DNA of 33,700 nt, from positions 1 to 33,700 of the forward strand of contig JABDPQ010000229.1 of the NCBI GenBank assembly GCA_013042695.1. Direction: 5' to 3'. The notes under the pieces are model-generated. The model made no database searches. It was given only the letters and a program-made list of their open reading frames with translations, and had not been told where the DNA came from. Shown here piece by piece: positions 17,096-33,700 of this stretch. Position numbers and translations under genes: made by a program. The DNA is from Desulfobacterales bacterium (GTDB lineage Bacteria; Desulfobacterota; Desulfobulbia; Desulfobulbales; Desulfocapsaceae). Numbering within the stretch: position 1 is the first letter of the stretch; each line of letters opens with the position of its first letter.

Positions 17096-17704
17096 TTATG
17101 ATGAACAAATAAGTTTTCCGGCAAGAAGCGTTCCGGTCATTGCCAGGCATTCCATATCAAGAAAATATTGTGCCGTTGCTTTGTACAGGATGGAGCAGGT
17201 TGCCTCAAAGAGATCATCCTGGTCATTGAAATTGACGATCACAGGAATTCTTGGTAAGGCATAAAAGAGCAGGGAAAGATCGTATGAAGCATCCTCCCTG
17301 ATCTCTGCTCCCAATTCGTCTGCACGTTCTCTAAAGCGCTCAAGCTTTCCTGAGTAGGTGGATTCTATGATCTTGTTTGTGTTTGTCGTGAAATATGAGA
17401 TGAGAGGAGCTGAATTGCGAAATTCCCGGTAGGTCATCAATCGATTTTGCTGAGGTGGAATTTCAGCAGGACAGCTAAGAACATATTTGCACAGGATAAC
17501 GCTCACGGCCGCTGCGACCTCCCCGCCATGACAATCAACGATGGTATCACCCGATACAGCATATGTTTTATTGTAAAGCGGCACGATTAAGGCGTCTTCT
17601 GAGATACTGACGCCGAGCAGATCAGCACGTGAGAGGTAATCGATGTTTTTAATCTCACCAAGGTAACGACGATAGGTTTCTTCGAAGACCGGTGCCTGCG
17701 CCAT
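17096..17704 (-). CDS. DUF3786-family protein (short form, no Fe-S N-terminal domain)
   Basis: A 202-aa ORF that is collinear with the C-terminal 200 aa of the 22995..23807 product: ...YREFRNS / SFRELRGG..., PRIPVIVNFNDQDDLFEATCSILY / PKVPLMICYWKKDEGMGSSLNVFF. The family name is from memory. Confidence 0.7.
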   Translation of the reverse strand: MAQAPVFEETYRRYLGEIKNIDYLSRADLLGVSISEDALIVPLYNKTYAVSGDTIVDCHGGEVAAAVSVILCKYVLSCPAEIPPQQNRLMTYREFRNSAPLISYFTTNTNKIIESTYSGKLERFRERADELGAEIREDASYDLSLLFYALPRIPVIVNFNDQDDLFEATCSILYKATAQYFLDMECLAMTGTLLAGKLICSS

Positions 17705-18396: not shown

Positions 18397-20358
18397 TCAG
18401 GCTGTTGCCTCCAGGGCTCGACGATCAGCCATATCGAGCAGCACGCGTTCTCTTGCTTTATCAATTCCAAGCTCAGCACGTTTCTTATCGATATGGGCAA
18501 TCATGATTCGGGCCATCTCGTGAGGAGTATCAGCAAACCCCCACTTACCAAACCCTTTACCCTCAAGTTCCTCAAACAGATGCTTCTCGAATCTTGTTGC
18601 TTTGGTGATCGGGAAGGTGTGACCAAAAACGGTAAAGACGCCCGAAGCGACAAAATATTGTCCAATGGCGATCGCCTTCTCACTCATCCACTCAGGTGCA
18701 CAACCGGCAACGGGCAAATCAGCAATGGCGTCGCCTAAGCCCCCCGTTTTAACCATTTCCGAGACCGCCATCAAAATCCTGCTGTTATCAACACAGGCGC
18801 CCAGACCAAGTATCGGTGGAATACCAACAGTCTCACATACCTCTGCCAACCCTTGACCGGCAAGTGCCGCTGCACCCGGCGTTGTCAAGCCGGCTTTGGC
18901 AAGTGCCATCTGCGAACAGCCGGTCTGCACGACCAGGACATCGTTTTTTATCAGCTCCTTGACCAGCTCGACATGCGAGAAGTCCTGTTTTGAACGCGGG
19001 TTGGTGCAGCCGACGACACCGGCAACGCCCCTGATGCGCCCATTTATAATATTATCATTGAGTGGTTCATAGCCACCCCTAAATGAACCTCCGAGCATAT
19101 ATTTGATGTATTCGTGCGAAAAGCCATGAACCCCTTTGGCGACGTTACGTGGGATTTCTATAGCCGCAGACCGGTTTTTGTACCGGGAAATTGCCTTGAT
19201 GATGATCTCATCAGTGCATTTCATCGGGTCATGTTCGTCGAGTTCGATGTGCAGAGCATTTTCGATTTTGGCTCGATAGTTTGTGGTAATGAACTCGGTA
19301 TCATAACAGCCGGCGACTTTATGCAGGTCCTGCTTAATACACTGGATATCAACGGTCATTGCATCAACCGCGCCCGTGACAAGGGCAGCTTCAGTTGACG
19401 AGAAGTTACCTGCGTGCGGTATGCCATGTCGTGAAAGCACATCAAGACCTGAACAGCACATACCGACCAGGTTCAGCCCTTTAGCCCCGGCGTCAGTAGC
19501 CATTTTTTTAATTGACGGTGCATCAGCTGAGATCATCATGGCTTCAAGCAGAATCGGTTCATGGCCATGAACAATAATATTTACATGATCTTCCTTCAAT
19601 ACTCCCATGTCTACGGATACTTCAACCGGAGAGGGTGTGCCAAAAAGAATATCGGAGATGTCAGTTGAAACCATTGAACCACCCCAACCGTCAGCCAGGG
19701 CCGTACGGGAAATCTGTTTAGTGATGTTCTCATAATCCTGGTCAACTCCCATGGCAGATCGATGCATCATCTCCATGATCTCCCGCATAGCCCCCCGGGG
19801 CACAATGCCTTCGCGCCGCCATGTTTCCAGGGTTTGTTCCGGTACTCTCTTTACCAGTGGAATTTCACCTTCTACCTGGGTGTAGGTCATTTCCAATGCT
19901 TCATAGACGTCTGTGGCAATCTCCTTGATAGACCTGCCATCAACCTCGATGTCAAGTGATTCAGCCACCTCCTTTAATTTCATGGTATCTTTGATCTCAA
20001 AATCGGTAACCGTTCCCTCAATTACCCCTCGAAAGAGATCAAGCATTGCCATACCGTGGTCGGTGTGTGCCGCCGTTCCTGCTGCTACCATTCTACCGAA
20101 ATTTCTCGCTGCAATCGTGTCTATGGTTGCCCCACAGACACCAACACGCTTATAGGGATCGCTCGGGTTCATACGACACGGTCCCATAGAGCAGTGCTTA
20201 CAACAGGCAGAATCGGCACCAATCGGACAAGGCTTCACTTCCTCCGATCGATCAAAAAATAGTTCCACCCCATCCCTGCGGGCTTTAAGAATCATCTGCT
20301 GGGTGGATTCACAAATAGTAATGTCTTCTGGTCGAATTAATTGTTTAGGCTTTGCCAT
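18397..20358 (-). CDS. cooS: Anaerobic Ni-Fe-S carbon monoxide dehydrogenase catalytic subunit
   Basis: It has the N-terminal cluster motif CPIGADSACCKHCSMGPCRMNP and CooS blocks throughout (HGHEP, GMCCSG, VGCTNPR, GACVDNSR). I set the start at the ATG at 20358, which has a GGGGGAGGAG RBS. The 26 upstream codons in the ORF track have none. Confidence 0.92.
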   Translation of the reverse strand: MAKPKQLIRPEDITICESTQQMILKARRDGVELFFDRSEEVKPCPIGADSACCKHCSMGPCRMNPSDPYKRVGVCGATIDTIAARNFGRMVAAGTAAHTDHGMAMLDLFRGVIEGTVTDFEIKDTMKLKEVAESLDIEVDGRSIKEIATDVYEALEMTYTQVEGEIPLVKRVPEQTLETWRREGIVPRGAMREIMEMMHRSAMGVDQDYENITKQISRTALADGWGGSMVSTDISDILFGTPSPVEVSVDMGVLKEDHVNIIVHGHEPILLEAMMISADAPSIKKMATDAGAKGLNLVGMCCSGLDVLSRHGIPHAGNFSSTEAALVTGAVDAMTVDIQCIKQDLHKVAGCYDTEFITTNYRAKIENALHIELDEHDPMKCTDEIIIKAISRYKNRSAAIEIPRNVAKGVHGFSHEYIKYMLGGSFRGGYEPLNDNIINGRIRGVAGVVGCTNPRSKQDFSHVELVKELIKNDVLVVQTGCSQMALAKAGLTTPGAAALAGQGLAEVCETVGIPPILGLGACVDNSRILMAVSEMVKTGGLGDAIADLPVAGCAPEWMSEKAIAIGQYFVASGVFTVFGHTFPITKATRFEKHLFEELEGKGFGKWGFADTPHEMARIMIAHIDKKRAELGIDKARERVLLDMADRRALEATA

Positions 20359-20697
20359 GGCTCCTCCCCCTGGAAGGTTTTTGTGGGTGAACTTTCCTGA
20401 AAATGCCTGGAAAGCATATGATTTTTTTTCGTACACTCAGTAAATTGGAATGTGGATATCTCCAATATTGAGAATTATTCTCATATAGAACACTATAATA
20501 CCGCCACATTGTGGTAATGTCAAATAGAAAAAGATCGGAAAAAATAAAGATAAACGCTGAAAAATAACCAGATAGCCAAACGAAGGGAATCGTCAACTTT
20601 ATGGCGACCCAACAGTTAAATTGACCAACTCTACGAATAGCATAACACCTTTCTGCAGCAGTAGCAGGAAAACCGATATTGGCAGGGGATGAAAAAA

Positions 20698-22994: not shown

Positions 22995-23807
22995 TTAAGC
23001 TGCCACCACCAAGCCATGCTTGAGGGCCAGCCGCTCAAACATCTGGGTAAGACCGGCTCCAAGAGTAAAAGCAGCCTCTGCTCCAAGATTATCATCGACA
23101 GTTCTGTCAAAAAACACATTGAGACTTGATCCCATCCCCTCGTCTTTTTTCCAATAGCATATCATCAGAGGCACCTTCGGCAGGACAGGCAGCACGACGG
23201 AGATATCAGACTCAAAAAGGCTATCAACCTGCCTGCCTTGAAACAGATCCGTTATGTCATTAAAGAAATCGGTATAAATATCAGCAACCCGTTTCATGGC
23301 TTCTTCGCATCGTTTTCTAAAAAGTGGATAACGCTCCTTTCCCCCTCGGAGTTCTCGAAACGAAACCCATTCTCCGACGACATCACTGCCCTGACAATTC
23401 ATTACATAGATTAGAAATGGTCCGGTAATCCAAGGATTTACATGAATGTCTGAGCAGATGTTGCCCTGCGTATCAATGCCAAAATCTTTTCCAAGAATTT
23501 TTATCGTTAAACCCTCACCAGAGAAGTTGCCTCCTATCCGTGCCGCCGCCTCTTTCAGGTCACTCCTGGCCACCATCTGTTTGAGGGTTTCCAGACCGTC
23601 AACTTCGGCCTGACTGACGTGGTCTTCCCGTACCTCTGGTGCAAATCTTGCTGCAACAGCAGGATCCAGCACCGGACAATCATATATAGATCGCCGTCCC
23701 TGGTAGACCATACCGGCAAATGCCAGACAGGTCTTCTCACCACACTTCCTGCAATTGCTTTTATCCAGCAGCGAAAAAACCTGCATAACGTTTTCAGGTT
23801 TCGCCAT
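22995..23807 (-). CDS. Fe-S-domain (CoFeSP/RnfB-type N-terminal cluster motif) + DUF3786 protein
   Basis: The N-terminus carries CRKCGEKTCLAFAG...C (Cx2Cx4Cx16C), like the N-terminal 4Fe-4S motif of the corrinoid Fe-S protein large subunit and RnfB. The remainder is collinear with the 17096..17704 product. GGGAG RBS. Confidence 0.75.
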   Translation of the reverse strand: MAKPENVMQVFSLLDKSNCRKCGEKTCLAFAGMVYQGRRSIYDCPVLDPAVAARFAPEVREDHVSQAEVDGLETLKQMVARSDLKEAAARIGGNFSGEGLTIKILGKDFGIDTQGNICSDIHVNPWITGPFLIYVMNCQGSDVVGEWVSFRELRGGKERYPLFRKRCEEAMKRVADIYTDFFNDITDLFQGRQVDSLFESDISVVLPVLPKVPLMICYWKKDEGMGSSLNVFFDRTVDDNLGAEAAFTLGAGLTQMFERLALKHGLVVAA

Positions 23808-25162: not shown

Positions 25163-25440
25163 AATATCTCCTTTGTTGACAACAAATTTATGGGCAATCC
25201 CATTTCTTTTAAACCCTGTCTATTATCTACTAGTGATAATTATTATTCATTAATACGCAATGTTCTGTTATCGAGCAAGTCCATCACGTTTACCGTAGAT
25301 TGATTTTCTTTGATTTCAGTGGCCAATATACAGCGCAGCATGGCCTTTTAAATTGACATTTGTTGATGATCATTATTAGTATCATTGATAATGATTCCAG
25401 GTGACATCCATCGCACAACTATTCTTTCCCCAAGGACCTT

Positions 25441-26214
25441 ATGAGTGACAAGATCGCCGCAATAACACTTGAAGACATTCACAAAAGTTTTGGTAATAAT
25501 GAAGTCCTGTGCGGTATTTCGGTTACTGCTCACAAAGGTGAAGTGATCTCTGTCCTCGGCCCCAGCGGCAGTGGAAAATCCACCCTGCTGCGCTGCACCA
25601 ACCTGCTGGAAATACCAGATAGCGGTACCCTTAAAGTCTCCGGCGAAGAAGTACTGATGAGAAAGAATCGGCGGGGCCAAAATCAGCCGGCAGATATGCG
25701 CCAGGTTGAGCGGATCAGGTCCAAACTGGCAATGGTTTTTCAACAATTCAACCTCTGGTCGCATATGACCATTTTGGAAAATATTATTGAAGCACCTATC
25801 CATGTACTCAAGGTTTCCCGTGCAGAGGCTGTTGATAAGGCGAAAGAATACCTGCAGAAGGTTGGCATACCGGACAAACTCGATGCTTATCCATCACATC
25901 TTTCCGGCGGACAGCAGCAGCGTGCTGCCATAGCAAGGGCTCTGGCAGTTGAGCCAGAAGTCATTCTTTTTGATGAGCCAACTTCCGCACTTGACCCGGA
26001 ACTTGTCGGCGAAGTGCTGCAAGTAATGCATAATCTGGCCGAGGAAGGACGCACGATGATCGTTGTCACCCACGAGATGGGCTTTGCACGTGAGGTCTCC
26101 TCCCGGGTTATATTTCTCGATGAGGGACTCGTAATGGAAGACGGCTCCCCAGCAGAGATATTCGAAGCTCCAAAAACCGATCGCTTTAAAACGTTCATTA
26201 AGGCGATGGTATGA
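25441..26214 (+). CDS. Polar amino-acid ABC transporter, ATP-binding protein (HisP/ArtP-like)
   Basis: Walker A (GPSGSGKST), signature (LSGGQQQR) and Walker B ([11 protein letters not shown]). Confidence 0.9.
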
Positions 26215-26353
26215 GAGTCTCTCGCCTAAGCGATGGATAACCAGGGATATAACGAACATTGCCTATGAGCGTGCAATCCCTTATCAGATATTGACGATTT
26301 GAGGAAATTATCCAGACAAAGCGTTCTATTCAATTATGAAAGGAGGAAAAGGA

Positions 26354-29817: not shown

Positions 29818-30744
29818 TCACTCAAGAAACAACTGATTCCACTCTTTTAATTGTGTCACTGTTACACCTACCCCACCGCACACAATGATGACAATATTCT
29901 GTCTGTCACTCAGCACATCAGCCTCATTGTAAACCACAGAGAGGCTGGCACCACAGGCGGGCTCAACCAATATTCTATGATCTTCAAGAAAACGGTTGCA
30001 ACCATCCAGCGCATCTTTATCAGATACGACGTAGTTATAGATCTGATGCTCATTGCGCAGCTCAAAGGCACGTTTTGCTACCTTTTTGGCACCAAGTGAT
30101 GTTGCAATACTGTCGATTCCATCTATGGCGATATGTTCATTTGCTCTACAAGCAGCAGAAAAGCAGTCAGCACCGACGGTCTCGACGGCAACGACGGGGA
30201 CATCATGCCATGTATGTCGTTTCAAGCCTTCAACGACACCGCATAAAAGTCCTCCCCCTCCCACAGACAAGACAATGACATCAGGCCGCACTCCTGTCTT
30301 ATAGATTTCATCTACCAAAGAGATATGGCCTTCCCAAATTGGTGGATCATCAAACGGATGTATGTATGCGGCCTTGTCCTGAGCAATTAACAATGCCCGC
30401 TGATGCGCTTCATCCCAATTCTTGCCGTGGACGATAACTTCTGCTCCTTCTCGTTTGATTAAGTCAATGGCCCTTTTCTTTGTCGTTTGCGGAACAACAA
30501 CGGTAACAGAAGTTCCCAACAACCGACCGGCATGAGCAACCGCTAAACCAGCATTCCCACCTGATGAAGAGACGAGTGAAGTCGCCCCATCCTCAAGATA
30601 CTTTTTACAGGCAAAGCCAATTCCTCTGGCTTTAAACGAACCGCATGGCTGCATTGCTTCAAGCTTCAGCCATACACGAGCATCTAAACCTGCACCCACT
30701 GACAGAGATTCAATCAATGGTGTGTTGCTATATAAATCATTCAT
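29818..30744 (-). CDS. PLP-dependent L-serine/L-threonine dehydratase (tryptophan-synthase-beta fold)
   Basis: It has the PLP lysine motif GSFKARG, SSGGNAG and the glycine loop SVGGGGL. GGAG RBS. Confidence 0.85.
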   Translation of the reverse strand: MNDLYSNTPLIESLSVGAGLDARVWLKLEAMQPCGSFKARGIGFACKKYLEDGATSLVSSSGGNAGLAVAHAGRLLGTSVTVVVPQTTKKRAIDLIKREGAEVIVHGKNWDEAHQRALLIAQDKAAYIHPFDDPPIWEGHISLVDEIYKTGVRPDVIVLSVGGGGLLCGVVEGLKRHTWHDVPVVAVETVGADCFSAACRANEHIAIDGIDSIATSLGAKKVAKRAFELRNEHQIYNYVVSDKDALDGCNRFLEDHRILVEPACGASLSVVYNEADVLSDRQNIVIIVCGGVGVTVTQLKEWNQLFLE

Positions 30745-30889: not shown

Positions 30890-32176
30890 TCATGATGCGG
30901 ATAGCATCTCGTTGTCAGTACTTTTTGCTTCTTCATAATCAGTTTTGATAGTGAAATAAACTGTTATCAAGATGAATAGGGCCGAAAAACCAAAGAGTAA
31001 TTTATACGAGTCTTCCTGCATGAAATGCAGATAATCAAGCATCTTTCCGAAAACAAGTGGATAGCCTGCGGTTATCGGCAACGTAATAATCGGCGCCAGG
31101 GCGAAATATGAGGTGGCATCTGTTTTGTCGGCGAATTTCTTCACCGATGGCGGATAAACCATATTCCTGATCGCCCTGACAAAACCGAGCATATAGCTGA
31201 TCAGGAAAAAAGTGATATAGCTCGGGAAAAAGATGAGCATCATAAGAAGCATCAGTGTGACACATTTGGAGAGGATAAATTTTTGTTTCAAACCGAGGAG
31301 GTTCATCGCCCCAAGAAAAATGTTCACCGTGATTGAGCCGGCATAGATGCATGCAACGAACAGACCTGCGGCGATCGCATCTGCTACCTGATAGAAGCCG
31401 GTGGCATAATTGGCATAAAACGACAACACAGTAATAATGACATAAAAATCAAGATCGGCGATCAGAAAAATTAAAAATCGGCGATTCCTGGATATCTCAA
31501 CAAAAGAACTCCTGGTGTGGTGGAAAAATGAGAGATTCTCAACTGAAGGATCATCAGAATCGGCGATTTCCTTGGTAATAATAAAACATAACGACCCGAC
31601 AATAAAAACAAGACCTGTGCAGACAAATACCCAGGCTGATGAACTCAGCGAAAATGAATATCTATCCACTACCTTGAGAATAAATAAGCTCGAGACGACT
31701 TTGCCGATATTCTGGGCCAGCATCATATAGCCAAGTCCGGGAACTGTTTTTGACTCTGAGAAAATCCTCACAAGGTAATTCAACCAGACCGGAATTGTCA
31801 GCCCCATACATATTGAAAATATTGTGTAAGATGCAAAAAAGAGCAACAGGACATGTTCTGACTGCTTCATCACCAACAGAGTCAGTCCAAAAATCAGGAT
31901 GGAAAGTGCTGAAATCAGGTGAAGAAGAAGTACGAGTGTCTTTTTCAAGCGATAAAAGCTTGAAAGGTAACTCGAGAACAGCGGGAAACAAGATATACCA
32001 ACAACAAAGAGAGCAGGTACAAGACCGATGACAAAACTTGACGCACCGAGATTCTTCAGAAAAAGCTGAAGAAATGTCGATTCAAGGACAATCGGAAATC
32101 CCAATCCCCAGAAGAATTCAACGACAGATACACCAAAGACGTTTCTTTTGAAATAATTGTCCTTATAGCTATCCAT
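30890..32176 (-). CDS. MFS-type membrane transporter
   Basis: A 428-aa ORF with about 12 hydrophobic segments split by a central charged loop (ITKEIADSDDPSVENLSFFHHTRSS). The substrate is not predictable. Confidence 0.8.
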   Translation of the reverse strand: MDSYKDNYFKRNVFGVSVVEFFWGLGFPIVLESTFLQLFLKNLGASSFVIGLVPALFVVGISCFPLFSSYLSSFYRLKKTLVLLLHLISALSILIFGLTLLVMKQSEHVLLLFFASYTIFSICMGLTIPVWLNYLVRIFSESKTVPGLGYMMLAQNIGKVVSSLFILKVVDRYSFSLSSSAWVFVCTGLVFIVGSLCFIITKEIADSDDPSVENLSFFHHTRSSFVEISRNRRFLIFLIADLDFYVIITVLSFYANYATGFYQVADAIAAGLFVACIYAGSITVNIFLGAMNLLGLKQKFILSKCVTLMLLMMLIFFPSYITFFLISYMLGFVRAIRNMVYPPSVKKFADKTDATSYFALAPIITLPITAGYPLVFGKMLDYLHFMQEDSYKLLFGFSALFILITVYFTIKTDYEEAKSTDNEMLSAS

Positions 32177-32210: not shown

Positions 32211-32912
32211 TCACAGAGCGGAAAGAATTTTTCCTATTGCCTGCGTCAGGGCCTTGCTATGTATCTTTCCTGCAAAATGAACCGGACTTTTACCATGAAT
32301 CGGATCCCAACCGGCGGGGTCAGCAAAACAGTAGAATTGCGTATCGAGACCGATCTTGCGTGCAGCATCCTCAACGGATACTCCGACTAGGCGCTGAGCG
32401 GCTTCCCATGTCGCGCCGCACGGAGCTCCACGGATTACTCTGATGGCAACAATGTTACCATCTTTAACCTCAACCTCAAACTCGGGGGCGCCAAACCGGT
32501 TGCCGTATTCGCCAAGGCTAACCTGCCTTGGAAGGCCGCATCAGGTGGGCGGGGTCAGGGCCCATTTCGTCGTGGTCTTCTTGCCTGATGAAATAATAGG
32601 GATCCCTCTCCTGGCGCATAATTCTGCAAGATCCAACGACAGATCTTTGTGAGAGAGGAAATCAAGAACAAGATCAGACGCAAGATTGTCAGGTAGCAAT
32701 GCAGAGGTATCATCAAGGACGGGGGGCAAAGGAATATCAATAGATACGACTTCTAATGATATGATATCCTTGGCGTATTTCCGCACGCCGGCAATTTTTC
32801 TTTCACCGCTGCCATTTTGCTGAAACACGGTAACTTTCTGCAGCGCTATATGATTTTTCTCATGAGACATGGGCACACCACCATGCTTTTGGTTTATCTG
32901 TATGCGGCTCAT
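32211..32912 (-). CDS. Candidate selenoprotein, DUF166/COG1810-like, with in-frame UGA (Sec) at 32543..32541
   Basis: The ORF-track ORF 32541..32930 stops at TGA, but the same frame continues without a stop for 109 codons to the TGA at 32213..32211. The read-through gives ...KKTTTKWALTPPT-U-CGLPRQVSLGEYGNRFGAPEFEVEVKDGNIVAIRVIRGAPCGATWEAAQRLVG...DPAGWDPIHGKSPVHFAGKIHSKALTQAIGKILSAL. A SECIS-like hairpin lies 9 nt downstream. The start is uncertain: the ATG at 32912 is 8 nt after the upstream stop, and the ATG at 32870 (MSHEKNHIALQKVTVF) is the alternative. The 32930 start is a TTG that overlaps the upstream gene. Confidence 0.7.
32512..32531 (-). promoter_or_regulatory. SECIS-like stem-loop CCAAGGC-AGGUUA-GCCUUGG
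   Basis: A perfect 7-bp stem with a 6-nt apical loop containing GGU. The stem begins 9 nt after the UGA and the loop 16 nt after it. This fits the bacterial SECIS geometry as I remember it. Confidence 0.5.
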
Positions 32913-32919
32913 TGAGGAC

Positions 32920-33303
32920 TCAAATGTCAAGCCTCACCCAGCGCGTACAGTACCTGTACGCCGCTTCAAGCAGCTTTTTTTTCTTACTCTCAGCATGTAA
33001 AACGACCCCAAGCTCACCGAATTGACCGCGAAAAATCACCATGCCATCAAGAAAATCCTCTGAGTTACCGTCGTGTTCAATCTGACAAGGTCCTTCCAAC
33101 AAAGTAATGTCAAGCTCATCATCCTGGCCTTGAAAATATGCCATCTGAGCAAGCGCATGAAACTCATGCTTGTCATTGGCTCCTGACCGAATAGTAATTG
33201 CCTGAATATAACCTGGTTCACTGATAGCCCGATCAGGAACAATAATTATTGACACGCACGCTTGAATGGTTCTTCCTTCAGAAGCAATTTCTATTGCATC
33301 CAT
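32920..33303 (-). CDS. Hypothetical protein (127 aa)
   Basis: An ATG-initiated ORF packed tightly between the MetE-like gene (15-nt gap) and the selenoprotein candidate. I recognise no family. Confidence 0.5.
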   Translation of the reverse strand: MDAIEIASEGRTIQACVSIIIVPDRAISEPGYIQAITIRSGANDKHEFHALAQMAYFQGQDDELDITLLEGPCQIEHDGNSEDFLDGMVIFRGQFGELGVVLHAESKKKKLLEAAYRYCTRWVRLDI

Positions 33304-33318
33304 GAGAGCGTATTTCCG

Positions 33319-33700
33319 TCACATACACTTTGATCTGACAATTGCCGATACATCTCTGGTCAACTCAAGGACTCGCAATGCTTCCGCCTCGGATACGGTC
33401 CCGGTCCCGCAGCTCGGAGTTATCAACGTCTGTTCAAATATTGTTTTCGCCGATACGCCAAGTTTTTCAATTTGTGCTGACTGCTCAAACCATTTCTCGG
33501 CAAGGGCTTCAGCTGTTTCTGAGGCAATAAATTCAGGGGCAGTGGGAACAATACCTGAGGCGATAATTCCTGCACGCTTAAAAAAAGATACCAGGTGCTG
33601 CGGATAGAGGATCAACTTGTCGAAATAGCTGTATGCATCAAAGCTGATGATATCAACGGGTGATTCGAAAAGTATCGACCACTCGGTGTTGGCACAGACG
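33319..33700 (-). CDS. Cobalamin-independent methionine synthase catalytic-domain (MetE-like) protein, C-terminal part (the gene starts beyond the right edge)
   Basis: The frame is open from the window edge: VCANTEWSILFESPVDIISFDAYSYFDKLILYPQHL...GIVPT...LITPSCGTGT...RSKCM*. The (H)xC...and P.CG.. blocks correspond to the MetE-family zinc-ligand motifs (HMCYS / PDCGLKT in E. coli MetE, from memory). Confidence 0.7.
   Translation of the reverse strand, partial: VCANTEWSILFESPVDIISFDAYSYFDKLILYPQHLVSFFKRAGIIASGIVPTAPEFIASETAEALAEKWFEQSAQIEKLGVSAKTIFEQTLITPSCGTGTVSEAEALRVLELTRDVSAIVRSKCM

Follow-up and report, generated by a model that had tools for sequence, protein, structure and literature searches.

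A UGA codon very probably read as selenocysteine in a dfsP (DUF166) gene of Desulfobulbales-type sulfate reducers

Close to its end the window, by which we mean the whole 33.7-kb stretch of DNA analysed, carries a series of minus-strand genes (Table 1), among which an open reading frame, 32930..32541, stops at a TGA (32543..32541). Past this TGA the same frame continues for another 330 nt, that is, for 109 sense codons up to a second TGA (32213..32211), and none of the 109 codons is an ATG, GTG or TTG. An earlier note on this DNA had described both the open continuation and its missing start codon, and the sequence agrees on either point. The note had also joined the two parts into a 233-aa product starting at ATG 32912, whereas the N-termini of homologues and the NCBIfam model NF041372 place the start of the gene, dfsP, at ATG 32870..32868, giving a protein of 219 aa. 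Between this ATG and the final stop there is a single in-frame TGA, which is codon 110, and reading through it yields the peptide TPPT-U-CGLP, with selenocysteine (Sec) directly beside a cysteine as the note had proposed. As the true stop lies 34 nt before the start of a same-strand MFS transporter gene at 32176, the apparent 330-nt gap between the two genes is closed, and one 219-aa selenoprotein CDS fits the locus, rather than a 129-aa ORF followed by a 330-nt gap.

Upstream, dfsP is immediately preceded by a gene for a 127-aa protein, an arrangement found in 73 of 80 reference-genome loci, and this gene by the 3' part of a ~355-aa gene that in relatives is flanked by a CooC-like ATPase gene on one side and by the 127-aa gene on the other. 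The downstream MFS gene is co-located with dfsP in 21 of the 80 loci. No terminator-like site was found on the minus strand between positions 30700 and 33700.

Table 1. Features at the dfsP locus, in window coordinates.
Feature	Position	Strand	Basis or remark
dfsP CDS	32211..32870	minus	219 codons + stop; translation, PF02593, NF041372, homologue N-termini
In-frame UGA, very probably read as selenocysteine U110, then Cys111	32541..32543	minus	homologue column and orthologue codons
C-terminal 109 codons, predicted to be translated only upon Sec insertion	32214..32540	minus	DUF166 profile, codon differences
Putative bacterial SECIS core hairpin	32512..32531	minus	folds, bSECIS constraints, pairing in Sec forms
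127-aa gene, conserved partner upstream of dfsP	32920..33303	minus	73/80 loci
3' part of ~355-aa gene, cut by window end	33319..33700	minus	tblastn matches in 23 loci
MFS transporter gene, 34 nt downstream of dfsP stop	30890..32176	minus	Pfam MFS_1, synteny

The joined protein belongs to Pfam family PF02593 (DUF166), which it matches with 154.1 bits (E 5.3e-45; gathering threshold 24.4 bits) over profile positions 2-220 of 221, continuously over the TGA. The DUF166/COG1810 layout that the earlier note had proposed was hence recovered from end to end, and the C-terminal 109 aa alone still match profile positions 122-220 with 109.8 bits (E 1.9e-31), meaning that homologues do continue past the TGA through this segment. 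In addition, residues 11-212 match positions 1-202 of 203 in NF041372, a curated NCBI equivalog named "DUF166 family (seleno)protein DfsP", with 327.2 bits against a cut-off of 200 bits. A selenoprotein gene of this kind is not new, in view of the curated equivalog and of the work of Zhang & Gladyshev in 2007, who listed COG1810 as a selenoprotein with a predicted SECIS element, "Conserved protein COG1810" having first been reported in the delta1 and delta4 symbionts of Olavius algarvensis (PMC1976440). COG1810 is also named as a selenoprotein in reviews. dfsP is therefore a correct but ordinary find, from a family described in 2007 and already curated at NCBI. With the known DfsP/COG1810 proteins the window gene shares the equivalog-level family, a Sec position aligned to the Cys of homologues, a SECIS-like hairpin immediately downstream and a host within the Desulfobacterota; there is no essential difference between them, and the window protein is a further member of the family and not a variant. 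Its nearest database protein is 71% identical and its nearest reference-genome orthologue at most 78% identical. A literature search for the name 'DfsP' returned only dermatofibrosarcoma papers, and no report of 75Se labelling or mass spectrometry for any DfsP was found in the literature searched.

To judge whether the segment beyond the UGA is translated, we compared it with seven relatives, from which it differs by 42-54 synonymous-only versus 17-29 amino-acid-changing codons; the post-UGA part is at least as constrained as the N-terminal part. Judging from these codon differences, it is under purifying selection, and the synonymous excess together with the DUF166 match bears out its earlier description as protein-like and reveals conservation of the in-frame protein downstream of the TGA. 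The 109 codons also carry the family-invariant C111, C151 and C181, plus H198. Within the window, 33 TGA-terminated open frames have at least 100 codons and four of them possess a stop-free continuation of at least 100 codons, the three other than dfsP being antisense frames or simply running into the next gene.

The codon itself falls in an alignment column that is occupied by Cys in 113 of 120 protein homologues and by 'W' in the other seven, in which gene callers apparently read the TGA as Trp. Among the 76 scorable orthologues from reference genomes the column holds TGA in 56, TGT in 14 and TGC in 6, so that the TGA is itself conserved, as expected of bacterial selenoprotein genes, and homologues show Cys or Sec at this place as the earlier note had asked to be checked. 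Two close cultured relatives, Desulfofustis glycolicus DSM 9705 and Desulforhopalus singaporensis, carry the TGA form. For a selenoprotein, Zhang & Gladyshev demanded that at least two homologues show Cys opposite the in-frame TGA (PMC1976440, section 8); for dfsP such a Cys/Sec pair is seen with 113 of the 120 homologues and with the 20 reference genomes that have TGT or TGC. At least 16 database cluster representatives end exactly one residue before the Sec column. Annotation error is thus common despite the curated model, with at least 16 representatives truncated at the TGA and seven of 120 homologues mistranslated with Trp.

Across 52 distant DUF166 representatives the picture is different: only 24 have Cys in the Sec column and 20 have Phe or Leu there, while C111, C151 and C181 do not vary and H198 is shared by 42. 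The conserved Cys in a p..fC.L context that the note had named does exist, but it corresponds to C111, the residue after Sec, and not to the Sec column. The note had suggested that a Sec form would mark the catalytic residue of the family; with Cys in only 24 of the 52, the Sec would rather mark a subfamily-specific addition in DfsP, placed beside an invariant Cys, than the universally conserved residue of the family.

Nine nucleotides past the UGA, after the spacer UGCGGCCUU (9 nt), begins a perfect 7-bp hairpin, consisting of the 5' arm CCAAGGC (32531..32525), a 6-nt apical loop AGGUUA (32524..32519) and the 3' arm GCCUUGG (32518..32512), which is exactly the GGU-containing hairpin that the note had pointed out. 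It folds with a dG of -11.2 kcal/mol alone and -11.7 in 35-42-nt contexts. The bSECIS model (PMC13188914, Fig. 2A there for loop and stem) allows an apical loop of 3-9 nt on an upper stem of 4-16 bp; it asks for a G at one or both of the first two positions of the loop, most often as G followed by G or U, for a UGA-to-loop distance of 16-37 nt and for a minimum free energy of -7.5 kcal/mol or lower. The window hairpin lies within all four constraints; its distance of 16 nt, made up of the 9-nt spacer and the 7-nt arm, is the shortest that the range permits. Similar to the bSECIS consensus, whose archetype is E. coli fdhF, it is embedded in the coding sequence directly downstream of the UGA and has a small loop, with G then G at loop positions 2-3; it differs in being short and in having no evident extended lower stem, as far as can be told from the nucleotide sequence. 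No Rfam family, SECIS or other, was matched anywhere in the window at gathering thresholds. By chance such a structure is rare: of all 1,482 TGA trinucleotides in the window, plus and minus strand taken together, only three have a comparable hairpin downstream (perfect 7 bp, at least four G-C pairs, GG early in the loop, spacer of 6-14 nt), and apart from the dfsP TGA these are either out of frame or on the strand opposite a gene.

An 81-nt fold around the UGA was not more stable than shuffled sequences (z = +0.79), so the evidence for the hairpin is its conservation, not thermodynamics alone. In 57 Sec forms the stem is paired at 97.5%, a value that none of 500 shuffles equalled and that falls to at most 55% once the 3' partner is shifted by a single column. 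The pairing is kept by compensatory change, with 17 double changes (A-U to G-C) in the stems of Sec forms at synonymous third positions of Pro and Leu codons. It is also specific to the TGA-containing forms: in 20 Cys forms pairing amounts to 65.7%, which is the shuffle level, and a full 7/7 stem is present in 47 of 56 Sec forms versus one of 20 Cys forms (Fisher p = 3e-10). For the same P-R...L-G peptide, the mean number of pairs is 6.88 in Sec forms versus 4.86 in Cys forms. For the Arg residue encoded within the stem, 53 of the 57 Sec forms use AGG and 15 of the 20 Cys forms use a CGN codon, and every one of the 57 Sec forms has GG at positions 2-3 of the loop.

Could the UGA nevertheless be a defect? 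A Cys codon, TGC or TGT, may have been mutated or misread to TGA, leaving a broken gene from which only a 109-aa fragment or no useful product comes; one base substitution would suffice for this, since TGT/TGC Cys forms make up 20 of the 76 orthologues, and the Sec machinery is not visible in the window. We consider this highly improbable. The same TGA recurs in 56 independent reference genomes, the window gene has the hairpin, the AGG Arg codon and the GG loop that are specific to Sec forms and that the Cys forms do not have, and the downstream 109 codons contain neither frameshift nor stop and show a roughly 2:1 ratio of synonymous to non-synonymous differences. Scarcely more probable is that dfsP is an intact relic in a genome that lost its Sec-insertion machinery, with the UGA now terminating and the gene silent or truncated. 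Indeed, we found none of selA, selB, selC and selD within the 33.7-kb window, no tRNA of any kind, selC included (ARAGORN), and no second selenoprotein gene, as such a relic would have it; yet a perfect 7/7 SECIS and an intact, constrained downstream frame would decay quickly without read-through. Moreover, close relatives appear to decode Sec in DfsP and FdhA alike: in 32 of 34 loci the neighbouring formate dehydrogenase gene carries a TGA in frame, at HCARY-U-HSATV, which suggests that the clade decodes Sec. In L026 and L014, DfsP is of the Cys form and FdhA still keeps its Sec, implying that lineages escape Sec via a change of the codon and not via loss of the machinery. As for a genome-wide reassignment of TGA to Trp or Gly (code 4 or 25) instead of SECIS-directed Sec, the 'W' found in seven database homologues could be cited in its favour, but it is refuted by stop usage, and we give it practically no credence. 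TGA is the stop of 12 of the 27 window genes, those of the corrinoid protein, the pterin methyltransferase and the carbon monoxide dehydrogenase (CODH) lie exactly at the ends of the family profiles, and Cys homologues combined with a co-varying hairpin are what Sec recoding predicts.

The central reading of the earlier note, a Sec-decoded UGA with a bacterial SECIS and a U-C pair, is therefore supported by the family, column and hairpin tests, and we regard it as very probable that dfsP of Desulfobulbales-type sulfate reducers is decoded in this manner. On meeting the UGA at codon 110, the ribosome would find the downstream hairpin acting as a bacterial SECIS, which would recruit SelB carrying Sec-tRNA(Sec) and lead to the insertion of selenocysteine; translation would then run 109 codons further to give a 219-aa protein with adjacent U110 and C111. 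From its relatives we infer that the source organism can decode Sec, with an insertion that would depend on SelB. The current understanding of Sec recoding is unchanged by this gene.

Turning to function, the genomic context offers some guidance. Based on synteny in relatives, dfsP follows either acsC-acsD-cooC-like genes or an NAD-linked formate dehydrogenase that contains Sec, and it lies in Wood-Ljungdahl clusters, with either CODH/ACS accessory genes or a Sec-formate dehydrogenase. The 127-aa protein encoded next to it has about 360 homologues, all 'hypothetical', and matched no Pfam or NCBIfam model; its AF2 model (pLDDT 90) gave no PDB fold match in Foldseek (best E 0.12). A full-length homologue of the ~355-aa protein, from L008, had no Pfam match either. 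In Methanococcus maripaludis, a DUF166 gene adjoins cooC2 and is essential for CODH/ACS-dependent autotrophy; this gene, MMP_RS05055, is cofit with CODH/ACS (r 0.94-0.99), and CO2 fixation is lost upon its deletion (bioRxiv 10.1101/2024.03.05.583561). MMP_RS05055 is the only DUF166 member with a phenotype, and it resembles DfsP in belonging to the same Pfam family and in standing beside genes for a CooC-type ATPase and CODH/ACS, but it comes from an archaeon, is only distantly related, has not been reported to be a selenoprotein and has no known 127-aa partner.

Given the pairing with the 127-aa gene, the acs/cooC or Sec-fdh context and the M. maripaludis phenotype, our best guess is that DfsP may be an accessory factor, for maturation, repair or redox activation, of the CO2-reducing metalloenzymes of the Wood-Ljungdahl pathway. 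The conservation of C111, C151, C181 and H198 across DUF166 suggests that this Cys3(+His) constellation could form a metal or Fe-S site. To this site the DfsP subfamily would have added a Sec or Cys directly beside C111, where it could supply one more ligand of greater nucleophilicity or take part in a vicinal selenenylsulfide. More specifically, and only tentatively, DfsP and its nearly obligate 127-aa partner might work together as a so far unrecognised accessory system of two proteins that serves CODH/ACS and Mo/W formate dehydrogenase. Cys3(+His) would then hold a metal or Fe-S cluster, and the selenolate of Sec110, as ligand or nucleophile, would accelerate the delivery of metal or sulfur, or a reductive repair. 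If this were true, DfsP would be among the few selenoproteins that act in metallocentre biogenesis and not in catalysis proper. The Sec beside an invariant Cys, the 127-aa partner, the acs/cooC or Sec-fdh clusters and the methanogen mutant can in any case guide experiments on such an accessory factor.

The earlier note had spoken of a U-C redox motif, of which the adjacency of U and C stands, while the redox role is conjectural and a role as metal ligand equally conceivable. Taken literally, U110-C111 would be a free-standing redox pair forming a vicinal selenenylsulfide, and DfsP a small thiol/selenol oxidoreductase rather than a metal-handling accessory factor. Mammalian thioredoxin reductase has such a vicinal pair, Cys-Sec, in its C-terminal Gly-Cys-Sec-Gly. 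Like this enzyme, DfsP has its Sec adjacent to a Cys, and an eight-membered selenenylsulfide ring is possible in principle; unlike in the enzyme, the order is U-C and not C-U, the pair is internal and not C-terminal, the fold is unrelated and the Cys of the pair belongs to the family-wide Cys3(+His) constellation. The adjacent U-C in the window with its C-C counterpart in Cys forms and a rubrerythrin neighbour in 42 of 80 loci speak for such an oxidoreductase, as does the statement in PMC9312934 that most prokaryotic selenoproteins are redox proteins. Against it, the Sec column is not family-wide, whereas the invariant C111, C151 and C181 and the frequent H198 fit a shared metal or cluster site better, and both the linkage to cooC-like, acs and fdh genes and the phenotype of the methanogen DUF166 gene point to metalloenzyme biogenesis. 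We therefore view a purely redox function as conceivable but rather doubtful.

Structure searches gave little further direction. A profile search of PDB sequences found no meaningful solved relative of DfsP (best E 0.17), and with the AF2 model of the 71%-identical homologue P0001 (pLDDT 86) as query, Foldseek returned nothing with E < 0.01 or TM > 0.34. The C-C-G motif prompted us to consider the CCG cysteine-rich domain (PF02754, HdrB/GlpC type), but we rejected this kinship, given that a Pfam scan of the joined protein with E up to 1 gave DUF166 only and that the Gly is kept in only nine of the 52 distant family representatives. The label 'thymidylate synthase' carried by some homologues was without support in any search and was treated as legacy annotation.

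A few other places in the window were considered as well. Ahead of the CODH start, 51 codons stay open; they were not taken as a coding extension, as the CODH profile does not need them. The only other long TGA-joined frame in the window is 25351..26262 on the minus strand; it is antisense to an ABC ATPase ORF (25441..26214, plus strand), is not protein-like and is without a SECIS-type hairpin, and was discarded as a selenoprotein candidate. Finally, the in-frame TGA at 33321, which separates the 355-aa from the 127-aa gene, is a normal stop and not a Sec codon, as the two genes lie in different frames in L008.

The minus-strand open reading frame that opens at a TTG at 32930 indeed ends at a TGA (32543..32541), as the earlier note had claimed, and the same frame then continues through 109 sense codons (32540..32214) up to the TGA at 32213..32211. 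ATG, GTG and TTG are all absent from this stretch of 109 codons, which hides the extension from start-codon-based ORF finders. The real stop of the gene, dfsP, lies 34 nt short of where the MFS transporter gene begins, and this closes the apparent 330-nt gap downstream. The observation itself (in-frame TGA, extension and hairpin) is thus confirmed; the proposed 233-aa product starting from ATG 32912 had to be given up. Homologue N-termini and the start of the NCBIfam model NF041372 put initiation at ATG 32870, which yields a product of 219 aa, starting MSHEKN..., in which selenocysteine (Sec, U110) and C111 are adjacent. Coordinates are collected in the table.

Coordinates of dfsP, its hairpin and associated genes (window positions unless a reference-genome locus is named)
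Feature	Position	Strand	Remark
dfsP	32870..32211	-	Sec codon 110
Hairpin, 5' arm CCAAGGC	32531..32525	-	
Hairpin, loop AGGUUA	32524..32519	-	
Hairpin, 3' arm GCCUUGG	32518..32512	-	
MFS transporter gene	30890..32176		
127-aa gene	32920..33303	-	directly upstream of dfsP in 73/80 reference-genome loci
Roughly 355-aa gene	33319-33700	-	cut by window end; full length in locus L008, 4492-5559
DUF3786 genes	17096-17704 and 22995-23807	-	one with N-terminal Fe-S domain as in CODH/ACS gamma subunit
CooS-type CODH gene	18397-20436		
TGA-split fdhA, locus L026	2728-5415		
TGA-split fdhA, locus L014	2659-5346		30 further loci likewise

Assignment to the DUF166 family was borne out when the joined product was searched with U replaced by C: the PF02593 profile ran unbroken across the TGA (positions 2-220 of 221, E 5e-45), and the C-terminal 109 residues by themselves matched it with an E-value of 2e-31. 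In NCBIfam, the equivalog model NF041372 ("DUF166 family (seleno)protein DfsP", cut-off 200 bits) gave the joined protein 327 bits over 202 of the model's 203 positions. The family is small: when 1.8 billion cluster representatives were searched exhaustively with a profile, 364 clusters fell at E <= 0.001. Zhang & Gladyshev (2007, PMC1976440) described "Conserved protein COG1810" in the delta1 and delta4 symbionts of Olavius algarvensis as a new family of selenoproteins and predicted a bacterial SECIS for it; it also appears in two reviews (PMC9312934, PMC13188914), the later of which cites NF041372. Given this description, the model and the database entries already titled "DUF166 family (seleno)protein DfsP", the window gene is a correct rediscovery and a further member of a known selenoprotein family.

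The homologues are in line with the expectation of Cys or Sec at codon 110. Among the best 120 database homologues (60-71% identical to the window protein, about 218 aa), this column holds Cys in 113 and "W" in seven, the latter being the letter that gene callers give to a TGA read with code 4 or 25. A one-genome-per-species scan, in a set from which the window's own genome is absent, gave 534 relatives, and the best 80 were examined; all of these 80 belong to Desulfobulbales-type Desulfobacterota (Desulfofustis, Desulfopila, Desulforhopalus, Desulfocapsaceae and others), the nearest being 78% identical to the window DfsP. At the 76 scorable loci among them, the Sec-column codon was TGA in 56 (Sec forms), and TGT in 14 or TGC in six (Cys forms).

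The hairpin following the UGA is present as described, separated from it by the 9-nt spacer UGCGGCCUU. Set beside the limits that a recent review (PMC13188914) quotes for the bacterial SECIS model, it has an apical loop of 6 nt (3-9 nt required), an upper stem of 7 bp (4-16 bp), a G at the second loop position (at least one G required in the first two), a UGA-to-loop distance of 16 nt (16-37 nt) and a free energy of -11.2 to -11.7 kcal/mol (<= -7.5 kcal/mol). Comparable hairpins follow three of the 1,482 TGA trinucleotides of the window, the two besides dfsP being out of frame or antisense; likewise, 33 open frames of at least 100 codons end in TGA, and three of them besides dfsP continue for 100 codons or more, these three being antisense frames or the next gene. 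The 81-nt fold around the site was no more stable than shuffled sequence, which leaves comparative data, not energy, to carry the case.

This comparative test is stronger than the fit to the SECIS model. Standard pairs occupied 97.5% of stem cells in Sec forms (57 sequences including the window) versus 65.7% in Cys forms (20 sequences), a level reached by 0/500 and 322/500 shuffles, respectively, and the full 7/7-pair stem was found in 47/56 Sec forms versus 1/20 Cys forms (Fisher p = 3e-10). The Arg codon within the stem is AGG in 53/57 Sec forms and CGN in 15/20 Cys forms, and sequences sharing the P-R...L-G peptide have on average 6.88 (Sec) or 4.86 (Cys) stem pairs. Sliding the 3' partner by one column lowered Sec-form pairing to at most 55%. 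Furthermore, one Sec-form stem pair (A-U 39, G-C 14, C-G 3), formed between the third bases of one Pro and one Leu codon, both synonymous sites, has undergone 17 double changes, and every one of the 57 Sec forms has GG at loop positions 2-3. The comparison of the two forms shows RNA-level selection on the hairpin that is confined to genes with TGA as the codon. The one Cys form with an intact stem, a dfsP with TGT at locus L040 (5329-5382), keeps the 7/7 hairpin, the AGG codon and the GG loop, and is probably a recent Sec-to-Cys conversion.

Translation beyond the TGA is also supported by codon differences. Compared with seven relatives, the post-TGA segment showed 42-54 synonymous-only versus 17-29 amino-acid-changing codon differences (33-40 versus 24-35 in the pre-TGA segment) and is constrained at least as much as the part before the TGA. 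Genome-wide reassignment of TGA is ruled out because TGA is the stop codon of 12/27 window genes, and for the corrinoid protein, the pterin methyltransferase and CODH these stops coincide with the ends of the family profiles. The clade decodes Sec: fdhA (formate dehydrogenase alpha), where it lies beside dfsP, carries an in-frame TGA at the canonical HCARY-U-HSATV in 32/34 loci. This Sec TGA is also kept at loci with a Cys-form DfsP, so that the swap in DfsP apparently took place without loss of Sec decoding. Within the window we found no tRNA of any kind, no sel-family match (Pfam, NCBIfam) among the ORFs scanned and no second selenoprotein gene. We are highly confident, with some residual doubt because the sel machinery was unseen in the window, that dfsP belongs to the DUF166 family and that its Sec is inserted under direction of the SECIS. 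Another TGA-joined pair of minus-strand ORFs (151 aa and 121 aa, 25348-26262) was discarded as antisense to the plus-strand ABC-transporter ATPase gene at 25441-26214.

Residue conservation was assessed in an alignment of 52 full-length representatives spanning the whole family. Cys is found at C111 in 51/52, at C151 in 52/52 and at C181 in 51/52, His at H198 in 42/52, and Cys at C85 in 11/52. The conserved Cys in a "p..fC.L" context named in the earlier note thus exists and is C111, but it is not the Sec column, which holds Cys in 24/52, Phe in 15/52 and Leu in 5/52. Sec110 is not a universally conserved residue of the family and represents a subfamily-specific addition beside the invariant C111. 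Judging from this alignment, C111, C151, C181 and H198 look like a Cys3(+His) site.

As to function, the DUF166 gene of Methanococcus maripaludis lies in an operon with cooC2, shows cofitness with CODH/ACS (r 0.94-0.99), and its deletion abolished CO2 fixation and was complemented in trans (bioRxiv 10.1101/2024.03.05.583561). The type of dfsP neighbourhood to which the window belongs (acsC/cdhD, pterin-binding subunit, CooC-like ATPase, 355-aa gene, 127-aa gene, dfsP, MFS) recurs in about 24 loci, and a second type (NuoE-like, NuoF-like, Sec-FdhA, 128-aa gene, dfsP, rubrerythrin, DUF3786, HdrA-like) in about 37. An Fe-S/DUF3786 gene lies within 6 kb of dfsP in 37/80 loci, and rubrerythrin in 42/80. 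The window also carries a CooS-type CODH, two DUF3786 proteins, a corrinoid protein with its methyltransferase and an MTHFR-like protein. The best reading of this context is that DfsP and the 127-aa protein, probably its functional partner, would act as an accessory factor for CO2-reducing metalloenzymes of the Wood-Ljungdahl pathway, possibly in their maturation, repair or redox activation, with Sec110 contributing a further ligand or nucleophile next to the Cys3(+His) site. The main mechanistic rival would make DfsP a free-standing selenenylsulfide oxidoreductase. DfsP has no relative of solved structure; the AF2 model computed for a homologue 71% identical to it is confident (pLDDT 86).

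The 127-aa protein has about 360 homologues, all "hypothetical", with an invariant C-terminal CTRWVRLDI motif preceded by a nearly invariant Tyr; it matched no Pfam or NCBIfam model, and its confident AF2 model (pLDDT 90) no PDB fold with E < 0.1. The roughly 355-aa gene is flanked in about 23 loci by the CooC-like ATPase gene on one side and the 127-aa gene on the other, and its product has no Pfam or NCBIfam match; its C-terminal ITPSCGTGT motif may resemble the Zn-binding Cys of MetE/MtaA-type methyltransferases. Elsewhere in the window, the two DUF3786 genes flank the CooS-type CODH gene, ychF and a rubrerythrin gene, and the 930 nt or so between the MTHFR-like and FMN-reductase genes (1137-2065) match no Rfam family and hold no convincing ORF, the longest being 50-90 aa and non-coding in appearance.

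The useful yield is a corrected dfsP annotation, together with functional leads from residue conservation and gene context. In public protein collections, at least 16 cluster representatives (including P0256, P0258, P0260, P0264 and P0267) have profile position 108 as their last, one residue ahead of the Sec column; they are Sec forms that gene callers have cut short. With the seven close homologues that carry Trp in this column (P0026, P0050, P0093, P0095, P0097, P0100 and P0110), they show that dfsP is systematically mis-annotated when genes are called in metagenomes. A "thymidylate synthase" label for the family also persists in some sources.
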